This document shows positions 41,390 to 59,534 of a stretch of 64,000 nt of DNA, piece after piece. How positions within the stretch are numbered: position 1 is the stretch's first letter; every line of letters begins with the position of its first letter. Below the pieces are notes generated by a model. It did not search any database. It was not told the DNA's origin and worked only from the letters and a program-made list of their open reading frames with translations. The stretch lies in assembly GCA_038087875.1 (NCBI GenBank), contig CM075993.1, forward strand, positions 2,544,001-2,608,000, written 5' to 3'. The DNA comes from Malacoraja senta. Lineage: Eukaryota. The translations under genes were made by a program, and so were the position numbers.

Positions 41390-41878
41390 TAGGTTGAGCA
41401 GGCTGGGTCTCTATTCCTTGGAGCGCAGGAGGATGAGTGGTGATCTTACTGAGGTGTATAAAATCATGAGAGGAATAGATCGGGTAGACGCACAGTATCT
41501 CTTGCCCAGAGTAGGGGAATCGAGGACCAGAGTACACAGGTTTAAGGTGAAGGGGAAAAGATTTAATAGGAATCTGAGGGGTAACGTTTTCACACAAAGG
41601 GTGGTGGGTGTATGGAACAAGTCAAGTCAACTTTATTTGTCACATACACATACAAGATGTACAGTGAAATGAAAGTGGCAATGCTTGCTCCCAGAGGAGG
41701 TAGTTGAGGCCGGGACTATCCCAACGTTTAAGAAACAGTTAGACAGGTTCATGGGTAGGACAGGTTTGGAGGGATATGGACCAGGTGGGACTAGTGTAGC
41801 TGGAACATGTTGCTGGTGTGGGCAAGTTGGGCCGAAGGGCCTGTTTCCATGCTGTATCACTCTGTGACTCTATGACTC
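41390..41878 (+). mobile_element. CR1 3' fragment with a small insertion
   Basis: ORFs 41295..41672 and 41685..41867; CTCTATGA tail. Confidence 0.87.
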
Positions 41879-42285
41879 AGAGTGAGGAGTTGAGGTACCA
41901 AGTGTAAAGAGTTGTGGAGGAGTTAGACACAAGCGAGCGGTGACTGGTGGACAGAGGAGGAGTGAAGGGTGGAAACAAGGGTCTGCAGATGCTGGTGCGT
42001 GGACATTCCTCCTCAACCTTTGTTGGAAGTGAAAGCCTTTGTTTGTGGGCTTTCCCTGTTCCGCTGGGTGAACGTCAGTAAAGTCTTCCATCTAGTGGCC
42101 AAGCCCGGAACTGCCAAGGACTGCCCATCGCAACAGGTCACCTTGGACTTCCGTCTCGGTTAGAAGTCAATGCCTGGAAATTGGAATTGATTGATCCCTG
42201 GTTTTCTCAACTGATGGTGCGTTTAGCACAGTCACCAATTCAGATCGCATAAAAATACGAGGCAAAAGGGCATTTCAAGCAGCAT

Positions 42286-42576
42286 CTTCTTCTTGCGTCC
42301 AGAGGGTAGTCTGAAGAAGGGTTTCGGCCCGAAACGTTGCCTATTTCCTTCGCTCCATAGATGCTGCTGCACCCGCTGAGATTCTCCAGCATTTTTGTCT
42401 ACCTTCGATTTTCCAGCATCTGCAGCTCTTTCTTGAACATTTCTTCTTGTGTATGGCGTGCACAGCCTAAAGTTGTAGGACAACTTGTTCTATTTGATCG
42501 TATTTGATGTGCACGCCAGGTTGATTGCATTCGTCGAAACAGGGCGGACCACGTGAAGGTTGCAATCTTCCACCCC
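42286..42576 (-). mobile_element. Short ribozyme-headed retroposon (about 140 nt) with an (AAG)n tail; a Penelope-derived repeat is inserted in the tail (about 42298-42440)
   Basis: Flanked by TCAAGCAGCAT (42275-42285) and TCAGGCAGCGT (42577-42587); no tRNA A/B boxes; the 5' end coincides with ribozyme G1. Confidence 0.72.
42523..42576 (-). ncRNA. Minimal HDV-like self-cleaving ribozyme
   Basis: GGGGUGG-AA-GAUUGCA-ACC-UUCACGU-GGU-CCGCCCU-G-UUUCGA-CGAA-UGCAAUC gives a 7-bp P1 with G1-U wobble, a perfect 7-bp P2, a 3-bp P3, a 7-nt L3, a vestigial P4 and J4/2 CGAA. Confidence 0.8.
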
Positions 42577-43955
42577 TCAGGCAGCGTTAGGCCGGTGGAC
42601 AGTTCTCTGGTGCTGTCGGGCAGCAACTCTACCGTTGGGCCAACAGGCCGCTCCACCACAATATTTCTGAAATCCTTCCTAAACTGTCCCTCCTGTGCTC
42701 AACCCCAGACACATTACATTGAGTCTGTTAACTAGGCAAGGACAAGAGAGATGAAGGTTCTGAAATGAATTCCTCTTTACTCAATTATGGCAATTCTCTG
42801 TCTAACCTAGCTGAATTTTGTAGATCACTGGATTCTGAATGACAGCCACAATCGTTCAAAGATTGTAATTACTGCCACCAAAGAGCAGTTGATTGTTTAG
42901 TGAACCATTATATGAAGAGTGATCCTTCTCATTATTAAAGGTGGAGAAAAATGCTGGAGAAACTCAGCGGGTGAGGCGGCATCTATGGAGCGAAGGAACA
43001 GGTGACGTTTCGGGTCGAGACCCAAGGGTCTCCATAGATGCTGCCTCACCCGCTGAGTTTCTCCAGCATTTCGGACATGAATTGAAAGAGGCAATATTTA
43101 AAGGAGATGTGTGGGGCAGATTTTTTTACGATATTGACAGATACAATAGTGACATTTAAGAAACCCTTAGATAGGCATATGGATTTGAAAGGGATGGAGG
43201 CATAGATGACCATGTGCTGATCATGTGGATAGGTGATGATCTTGGCACCATGTACGGCACGGACTCTGTGGGCCCAAGGGCCTGTTTCCACGTGTATCAC
43301 TAAACTAATCTAGACTGTTCGGAATGTTTAAGATTGATACTACCCATTCTAACCATTACTAAGGCAAATTAGTTAATGGTAACATAAGGAAGTGCAGAAG
43401 CTGGGATCTTTACTCAAAACACAAAACACTTAGCGGGTGATGCAGCATCTGTGGAGGGAATGTATCTTTTCCTTCCACAGATACATACACGCTGAGTTAC
43501 TCCAGCAAATTGGTTAACGGGCTTTCCTCGTATTCCTTTTATTCTGATTAGGATTTAAATTCCCGTTCTGAGTTACATTTGCAGTAGCACGCAATCACAT
43601 TTACAAATGCATTACCATCTCTGATTATCTGTAATTGTTGCTTGCCTTTCGATTCCAGAGCAGTAGTTTCCAACTTTGAGTTCATCCGCTCCTTGCTGGA
43701 GACTGGATGGGATGAAGATGACAGAAGATGCGTGAAACTTCGGATCCTGAACGACTAATTCAATCCCGACTACGGGTGCTGCCTGTTTGGAGTTTGCAGG
43801 TTCTCCCTGCGGCCGAGTGGGTTTTATCCGGGTGCCAGGGTTTCTTCCCACTGTGGATTTTTGTAAATGCTGCCGAATCTGTCGTCTTGATAATGAATTT
43901 CACTGTGTTTTGCACCTATAGCAATACAGCACCATTGAATCGTTGAATCGGGAAT

Positions 43956-58273: not shown

Positions 58274-59534
58274 TGGAAAGGCCTCCTCCTAAAACTCACC
58301 AAAGCACTCCCTGCCTGGGCATCAGAAACCATCAAATCTCTGCTCTCCAACCGCAGGTCCAGAGTTCACCTTGGACAGAACAAGAGTGCATGGAGAACAT
58401 AGAAGAATGGGCTCCCGCAAGGGTCAGTTATAGCCCCAACCTTGTTCAACCTTTACACAAATGACCTACCCACCACCAAATCCCGCAAATTCATCTATGC
58501 AGATGACATCTGTGTGGCCTTCCAAGCACCAGATTTTGGTACATTGGAACAGGTGCTCAATGAAGACCTTGCTAAACTAGACGAGTACTGCAAAACCTGG
58601 CGCCTAAAACCAAGCCCAGAAAAAACGGTCTCCAGTGTGTTCCACCTCCATAATGCAGAAGCCACAAGAGAACCAAACATCTATCTGAGCAGGACCAAAC
58701 TGAAGTATGCCCCCACTCCAACCTACCTCGGAGTGACCCTTGACAGGACCCTATCCTTCAAGGAACATCTCAAAAGAACAGCAGCTAAGGTGAAGTCCAG
58801 AAACAATCTCCTCAGTAAGCTTGTTGGTTCAAAGTGGGGGGCAGCAGCCCCCACACTGCGCATTTCAGCACTAGCCCTTGCATTTTCTTCAGCCGAATAT
58901 TGCGCCCCTGTTTGGTCCAGGTCATCCCACACACACCATGTGGACACCCAATTGAACTCAACAATGAGGATCATCACAGGAACAATCCACTCAACACCAC
59001 TCCCCTGGCTCCCTGTCCTATCCAATATAGCCCCTCCACACATCCGGCGAGTAGCCCTCACTCAAAGGATGCTCCAAAAGACCAAAAACTCCCCTCATCT
59101 GCCAATTCACATGGACATCTTCAACCCACCCACGGCTCGACTTCCATCTAGACGACCAATTTGGAAGAACCTACCACCAGCTGATTTCACCACCCAATCA
59201 GCGTGGAAAAAGGAATGGGAGTCCAAGGACGTCCCAAATAAACATCTGGTGTCAGACCCAACCCTACCGGTCCCTGGCACCAATCTCCCAAGGAAGCAGT
59301 GGACGACGCTGAATAGATTCAGGACTGGACATGGCCCCTGCTTGGCCAGCCTTCACAAATGGGGCAGCAGCCCAACCCCACGGTGTGCTTGTGGAGAGCA
59401 GCAAACAATGCAACACATCATTGAAGCATGCCCTCAAAAAAGACTTAAAGGAGGACTTGTCACCCTTCATACAGCAGATCAAGAGGCAACTGCTTGGCCA
59501 AAGGACTTTGCATTCGCTAAATAAAATAAATAAA
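58274..59534 (+). mobile_element. 5'-truncated Ingi/Vingi-type non-LTR retrotransposon (RT C-half + C-terminal Cys/His motif)
   Basis: In frame from 58274 with one stop (TAG 58400-58402); motifs GLPQGSVIAP, FIYADD, YLGVTLDRTLSFKEH, WGA..LRISALAL..S.AEYCAPVW, LPVLSNIAPP, C.CG..QT..H...C; no RNase H seen; (TAAA)n tail. Confidence 0.8.

Follow-up and report, generated by a model that had tools for sequence, protein, structure and literature searches.

The locus raises the question of what kind of sequence carries a predicted self-cleaving HDV-like ribozyme at its very 5' end, and from where that ribozyme was obtained. In the window (the whole 64-kb stretch of DNA analyzed), a first-pass annotation had described a SINE-like retroposon headed by a minimal ribozyme and mobilized by a LINE.

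Extent of the element and its genomic copies

The element was delimited to 136 nt of the minus strand, without coding capacity. Its span had been given as 42286-42576, but the element ends at 42441, and a 142-nt foreign repeat (42440-42299) had been included wrongly. The features of the locus are as follows:

42441-42576, minus strand: complete 136-nt non-autonomous element, a LINE 5' end joined to a LINE 3' end
42576, minus strand: G1, predicted cut site and 5' end of the element
42533, minus strand: predicted catalytic C
42523-42576, minus strand: predicted P4-less HDV-like ribozyme, from pairing, cross-family covariation, copy variants and weak Rfam scores
42501-42522, minus strand: LINE 5' UTR, continued (element nt 2-76 against LINE copy L353:1367-1442, 89% identity)
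42479-42500, minus strand: subfamily-specific middle of 22 nt, without counterpart in the LINE interior
42441-42478, minus strand: LINE 3' end with the last three codons, stop (42469-42467), short 3' UTR and GAA tail
42454-42518, minus strand: predicted 11-bp stem around the body (42518-42508 pairs with 42464-42454)
42577-42587, minus strand: target-site duplication, upstream 11-bp copy, adjoining G1
42275-42285, minus strand: target-site duplication, downstream copy (9/11 match, two C-to-T differences)
42299-42440, minus strand: nested foreign repeat of 142 nt, with a 12-nt tail piece repeated on either side

The 9/11 target duplication that the annotation had placed directly against G1 is present at 42587-42577 and 42285-42275. 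Within the tail, the 12-nt duplication around the nested repeat (42452-42441 and 42298-42287) is 11/12 identical; 133 nt of the repeat match an abundant repeat with up to 96% identity, beginning at that repeat's natural end, and 12-nt duplications flank some other copies of this abundant type. The 20-mer spanning the junction with the foreign repeat is unique in the genome. The simplest reading, and a fairly likely one, is a later insertion of the repeat (42299-42440) into the element tail; a template switch during insertion of the element is the alternative. A motif suggests that the nested repeat is of the hammerhead/Penelope type, and Rfam gave it no label. Inverted and tandem copies of the abundant type occur at 42955-43064 of the window and at many other sites. 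The repeat types suggest a cartilaginous fish as the likely host. A second tail (42286-42307) was considered as the 3' end of another element and rejected, its sequence being unique in the genome. Just upstream of the element, 42590-42660 of the minus strand holds a decayed repeat head, which we take to resemble the start of a tRNA-derived SINE and which is also covered by many contigs of public runs.

Paralogues flanked by target duplications, for which a BLAST check had been proposed, are abundant. One 20-mer of the element has 5,381 exact matches (2,701 + 2,680) in the 1.94-Gb genome and none for the reversed control, a count that is a lower bound on copies yet includes LINE heads. A DNA search returned 1,401 candidates; the 40 that were scored are 94-100% identical, most of them starting at the base equivalent to 42576, and the 39 top matches other than the window copy show 94-99% identity over about query positions 15-150. 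Target duplications were sampled in the first 30 of the 20-mer matches by position, 29 of which had a 3' end. In 23/29 copies, a duplication of 8 nt or longer (median 12 nt) lay no more than 2 nt from G1, adjoining it exactly in 18 and standing 1-2 nt off in five; mismatched flanks gave duplications in 1.4% of 812 pairs. The remaining six of the 29 showed no clear adjacent duplication. When the upstream search was widened in six copies whose duplication was short or absent, no convincing 5' transduction was found; two copies fit short-range duplications, and two gave matches of 9-10 nt located 255-312 nt upstream, possibly by chance.

Copies begin at G1 and finish in (GAA)n. Among 90 loci picked by their 3' end, a sample that is not random since the loci were also chosen for deviating there, 77 had a head, and 71 of these heads start at nt 1-3; the precise 5' end that had been proposed thus holds across copies. 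Since public runs under nine organism codes contain 33-80% of the sampled element words (42441-42576), the family is likely to be common to related species; the same element ends were seen in three of four public runs examined. These four runs consist of contigs, which do not reveal transcript starts, and no RNA run was listed as containing the words.

Predicted ribozyme fold of the head

The first 54 nt parse as the complete HDV-type nested double pseudoknot originally described, with P1, P2, P3, L3 and J4/2 as claimed. On the minus strand, P1 is GGGGUGG/CCGCCCU (7/7 pairs, with wobbles G1-U and U5-G), followed by a J1/2 of 2 nt, P2 with 7/7 pairs, P3 with 3/3 pairs and L3 UUCACGU. The 3' part of the head consists of GU, a 5-nt linker and J4/2 CGAA, the C of which lies at 42533. 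The features that define HDV-like ribozymes (nested double pseudoknot of P1, P2, P3 and P1.1, G1 wobble, J4/2 C) are all found in the element, with P1.1 represented by one C-G pair. Only 7 nt separate P1 from J4/2, and the head is therefore P4-less. A reduced P4, U(UUCG)A, had been proposed; its one U-A pair is present, but copies differ in the loop (16/75 have A at position 42), so that P4-less is the better name.

A purpose-written HDV descriptor matched the element as its sole hit in the 64-kb window and returned none in 40 simulated 64-kb sequences, a result that is partly circular because the descriptor was written with the target known. The suggested Rfam comparison was favorable in rank and not in score. 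The scan of 2 kb gave no ribozyme match; in the scan of 141 nt, the top two of 4,227 families were HDV-type, both far below cut-off, namely RF00094 (19.7 bits against a cut-off of 50, E 0.48) and RF02682 (14.4 bits against 44), the latter aligned exactly to 42576-42523. The Rfam HDV-type models include P4. Neither scan matched the element to RF00622 (CPEB3). Plain MFE folding of the element gave nothing special (z -0.70), recovering P1 and not the pseudoknot; it is uninformative here because the fold is a pseudoknot.

Variation among copies picked without regard to the head is concentrated where the fold tolerates it. A variant reaches at least 15% at four of the 54 positions, none of which affects the structure: one lies in J1/2, one in P1 (a U-A to U-G change), one in the linker and one at a free J4/2 base. 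The predicted catalytic C44 is kept in 70/75 copies, and the remaining copies show C-to-T. On this fold model, the first 54 nt probably cut RNA before G1. With no P4, one P1.1 pair and a 2-nt J1/2, the reaction could be slow; in another HDV-like ribozyme, spacers of 0-1 nt gave little or no activity (PMC4908430).

At least six Vingi-type LINE families were found in the genome. A common 7-2-7-3-7-3-7 layout, written in different letters, is seen in the heads of families A, B-derived, C, E and G, whose P4 regions are between 5 and 40 nt long; family F yielded no head. The covariation set comprised seven rows, with heads from the five families plus the element, and the family C copy L354 was excluded because its first 7 nt are missing. 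Across these rows, 96% of P1/P3/P1.1 cells were paired and 7/11 pairs carried two-sided changes, while P2, counted separately, had 6-7 of 7 pairs in each head. Slid structures paired at 40-51%, and the covariation score was reached in 0/500 shuffles, a control that is inflated because the rows are related (two from one family, two near-identical heads).

The family E head (L363:3607-3690, minus strand; also L336:1393-1466, plus strand) scored 64.2 bits on RF00622 (cut-off 35, E 1e-15), and a 19-nt run through P2-P3-L3-P3 is identical to the CPEB3 consensus of Rfam. The B-derived head reached 32.8 bits on RF02682 (cut-off 44) and the family A head 19.9 bits, and Rfam gave no match to the family C head in L353. 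The element itself shares L3, the GU after P1 and J4/2 with the mammalian CPEB3 ribozyme consensus (RF00622). The CPEB3 ribozyme differs from the element in having a P4 and in being single-locus and intronic.

Further observations concern these families. Family E is a young LINE, with open frames of 1,008-1,014 aa in L337 and L339; tandem repeats of about 22 nt from the ribozyme 5' half occur at its 5' ends (L337:1250-1400 and L339:1360-1420, both minus strand), as if reverse transcription had slipped repeatedly at the fold. A second non-autonomous family of about 200 nt (808 candidates; L172-L201, e.g., L174:1501-1700, plus strand) combines a P4-bearing HDV-like head that starts at G1 with the final ~28 nt of LINE family B, and its copies show target duplications; this "B-derived" head was not traced to a full-length family B copy. 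The window itself contains, at 58403-59524 (plus strand), the 3' part of a young Vingi-type LINE of family A with a TAAA tail. Full-length copies of family A (3.1 kb, single ORF) start with an HDV-like fold and have no sequence in common with the element. Distinct GAA-tailed ends mark additional Vingi-type families (F, G and fragments) at L331, L342 and L017.

Probable derivation from a Vingi-type LINE

Both ends of the element were located in a single LINE copy, L353, in which they flank an endonuclease and RT frame (89% identity for nt 2-76, 87% for nt 99-136) and which has an 11-nt duplication. In a second copy, L354, element nt 8-76 match at 89-90%, and the head is followed by UTR, ATG and the endonuclease frame. 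G1 is kept in neither of these two LINE copies with a forward head, L353 having T at that position and L354 lacking the first 7 nt. At the other terminus, patterns anchored on the element 3' end with excluded letters upstream yielded five LINE 3' ends among 90 loci; these supply the final 38 nt of the element, from the last three codons through the stop and UTR to the GAA tail, and 42441-42478 is identical to LINE copies L351/L352 at 38/38 nt. This LINE family, designated C, has 486 candidates, and 30/30 of its LINE 3' ends examined finish in the element's terminus; its 5' part was reached by a protein search with the relative P0033.

Eight of 30 loci (L226, 228, 230, 233, 235, 236, 241 and 249) are exact-join copies, in which a 2-nt microhomology connects roughly 96 nt of 5' UTR with the final ~38 nt. 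Both ends and the exact-join copies trace to family C, which argues that the element is very probably an internal-deletion derivative of this ~3-kb Vingi-type LINE of the same genome, and that its P4-less HDV-like head is the LINE's own, inherited with the 5' end. Other short subfamilies, including that of the window, have different middles. The LINE did not contribute the 22 nt in the middle of the main subfamily: their 11-13-mers are absent from L354 at up to two mismatches, and three 10-mers match at two mismatches. The segment 42479-42500 likely arose by local duplication of UTR 9-mers. Two main-subfamily changes, at positions 59 and 61, convert LINE-state mismatches of the 11-bp body stem into pairs, and the perfected stem could reflect RNA-level selection or neutral correction between inverted repeats.

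Divergence, calculated at non-CpG sites from column majorities, was 4.0% mean and 3.1% median for the main short subfamily (n=21) and 6.8% for other short copies (n=8, mixed subfamilies). The LINE families gave 2.5% (C, n=29), 3.3% (B, n=18), 1.0% (E, n=6) and 0.7% (A, n=29), values biased young because they were drawn from top-scoring matches. The element's divergence fits family C better than the young families A and E. No intact family C driver was seen, since the longest own frames did not exceed 442 aa in any of 21 parent-LINE loci. In five of these 21 loci, which include one duplicate pair, the head is inverted at an internal junction, and none of these inverted heads extends upstream of G1. 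Such 5' inversions are frequent in family C (L312, L313, L351/L352, L362, L318, L359, L360), and several of the inverted pieces comprise only ~70 nt, which is the ribozyme head. A different, presumably L1-like element next to one family C copy has an open frame of 997 aa (L317, minus strand).

Other candidates for the parent were discarded. The Vingi-type ORF of the window (58403-59524) has a different head, a TAAA tail and no match to the element and is much younger. A second family has only the last ~16 nt in common with the element and possesses its own 200-nt derivative. A search for LINE copies diverging directly after the ribozyme gave 44 matches, 30 of which were examined and proved to be copies of the short element with deletions, truncations or inversions; this search missed the LINE because the LINE has more UTR in common with the element.

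Family C has the compact architecture given for Vingi in PMC13708176, with a single ORF, a length of ~3.0 kb, an APE endonuclease and an RT and no RNase H. The first frame of L354 matched Pfam PF14529. P0033, a full-length relative whose matched stretches are mostly 55-80% identical to family C, gave hits to PF03372/PF14529/PF00078, with no RNase H match. The parent is accordingly called Vingi-type, a label that follows architecture and a C-terminal Cys/His motif rather than a tree and whose domain list is shared by RTE; the protein matches included no named Vingi reference. P0033 is an intact protein of 1,019 aa from a public assembly, with at most ~80% identity to family C RT stretches, compared with 48% to family A, a likeness that may point to horizontal transfer.

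Proposed mobilization and relation to known elements

We consider it likely that the deletion-derived element amplifies through a P4-less ribozyme head that cuts before G1 and a LINE protein that copies the RNA. The LINE 5' and 3' ends are joined by internal deletion. Pol II would then transcribe a copy, most likely by reading through from a promoter of the host, and we lean slightly towards read-through as the main RNA source. The ribozyme would cut at G1, so that each new copy starts at G1 with a whole ribozyme, and its compact structure may in addition protect the RNA end, which carries no cap. The LINE endonuclease/RT would recognize the 3' terminus and GAA tail and insert the RNA by target-primed reverse transcription; copies occur at dispersed sites with duplications of ~12 bp. 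Shared ends and compatible ages suggest that the family C protein acts in trans.

The first-pass annotation's view that the element does without a Pol III promoter agrees with the sequence, which has no tRNA head and no exact Pol III boxes. No tRNA was found within 41500-43500 and no Rfam small-RNA match in the 2-kb and 141-nt scans; judged by consensus boxes, the element contains no A box at up to one mismatch and one B-like 9-mer with a single mismatch at nt 78. An internal Pol II promoter is a different matter. The element could have the same deletion origin while its head serves mainly as such a promoter, or as promoter and ribozyme together, with transcription starting at or near G1 without a cut. 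This is possible because the Pr77 head of L1Tc and NARTc is both promoter and ribozyme (PMC4035085, PMC8256844). A precise 5' end would be expected equally from an internal promoter, and more than 5,000 copies in several subfamilies need a steady RNA supply. However, the five heads differ in sequence and keep pairing, G1 and the J4/2 C; pairing kept despite differing letters implies a constraint at the RNA level, and we regard this reading as unlikely.

It is less probable still that the head cuts poorly and is kept as a folded 5' module that protects the RNA or binds protein. The loss of P4 and the single P1.1 pair would suit such a role, and R2 templates were inserted more efficiently owing to the fold itself, with cleavage by native R2 heads ranging from near-complete to little (PMC11331408). 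Yet natural P4-less HDV-like (theta) ribozymes are active in vitro (bioRxiv 10.1101/2023.06.13.544163), and retention of C44 in all but five of the 75 copies also speaks against a module of this kind. A SINE that was put together independently, having captured a ribozyme head and taken only its tail from a LINE, is largely refuted and hardly credible. The main-subfamily middle without a LINE match would be compatible with it, but one LINE carries head and tail, intermediates with the exact join exist, and the headed LINE copies do not look like chimeras, their UTR continuing into the ATG and endonuclease frame. What survives of the earlier SINE-like, LINE-mobilized proposal is the proposed mobilization, with a candidate LINE now identified by shared ends; a separately built SINE does not, since the head was already in the LINE.

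Cleavage of a deletion-derived RNA at G1, the reading we prefer, places the element in an architecture that is already known. Ribozyme-headed deletion derivatives include NARTc/RIME and the R2 SIDEs, and deletion derivatives of Vingi occur in hedgehog (PMC5786205, PMC3414825, PMC4035085, PMC6765202, PMC8256844, PMC4908430, PMC11331408, PMC13708176, PMC3391268, PMC5753468). As in these bipartite elements, both ends match a LINE of the same genome, and the sequence is noncoding and multicopy with target duplications. NARTc/RIME, derivatives of L1Tc/ingi in trypanosomes, likewise combine the HDV-like-ribozyme 5' end of a LINE with its 3' end, and the clades Ingi and Vingi are sisters (PMC4035085, PMC5786205, PMC13708176). 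Unlike them, the present element resides in an animal host and has 136 nt with a 54-nt P4-less head, whereas the L1Tc head has 77 nt with P4. The R2 SIDEs (short internally deleted elements) of Drosophila also have a 5' ribozyme and the parental 3' end and are moved in trans (PMC3414825); R2 is site-specific to rDNA and its SIDEs are rare, in contrast to a dispersed element with more than 5,000 copies and an APE-type parent. The non-autonomous derivatives of hedgehog Vingi-1_EE are likewise internal deletions of a Vingi LINE (cited in PMC5786205).

The nested double pseudoknot without P4, with the catalytic C first in J4/2, is shared with the drz-Mtgn and theta ribozymes. Theta ribozymes are defined by phage origin and an adjacent tRNA 3' end, whereas the element lies in a 1.94-Gb genome with no tRNA within 41500-43500. 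Phages reportedly carry nearly 99% of minimal HDV-like ribozymes, and searches of human, mouse and protist genomes are reported to have yielded none (PMC10879173, bioRxiv 10.1101/2023.06.13.544163). The portion of PMC5786205 considered here gives six ribozyme-bearing clades (R1, R2, R4, RTE, Ingi, LOA), Vingi not among them, and that of a gene-insertion review mentions ribozymes only for R2 (PMC13708176). No link between Vingi and ribozymes was found in the literature searched; Repbase/Dfam and patents, outside that search, may hold the family or the ribozyme. Relative to that literature, a ribozyme on Vingi and a P4-less HDV-like ribozyme in an animal genome, both predicted from fold models, appear to be new.

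The family E match to RF00622 hints, from sequence likeness, at a retroposon origin of the CPEB3 ribozyme. A broader scenario is offered tentatively: the Vingi clade would start with active CPEB3-type ribozymes, one lineage would have shed P4 and spread as the 136-nt retroposon, making it the first natural P4-less HDV-like ribozyme working in an animal genome, and the mammalian CPEB3 ribozyme would be a fossil head.

Together, our results would extend the ribozyme-headed LINEs to the Vingi type. The element marks the smallest cis-signals for such a LINE, about 76-96 nt of the 5' end and 38 nt of the 3' end, which bear on Vingi-based gene-insertion platforms whose RNAs retain native UTRs (PMC13708176). 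A P4-less HDV-like ribozyme, reported nearly only from gut phages, is now predicted at thousands of copies in an animal genome, and the five families of this one genome, with P4 regions of such different lengths, form a natural series on the purpose of P4.
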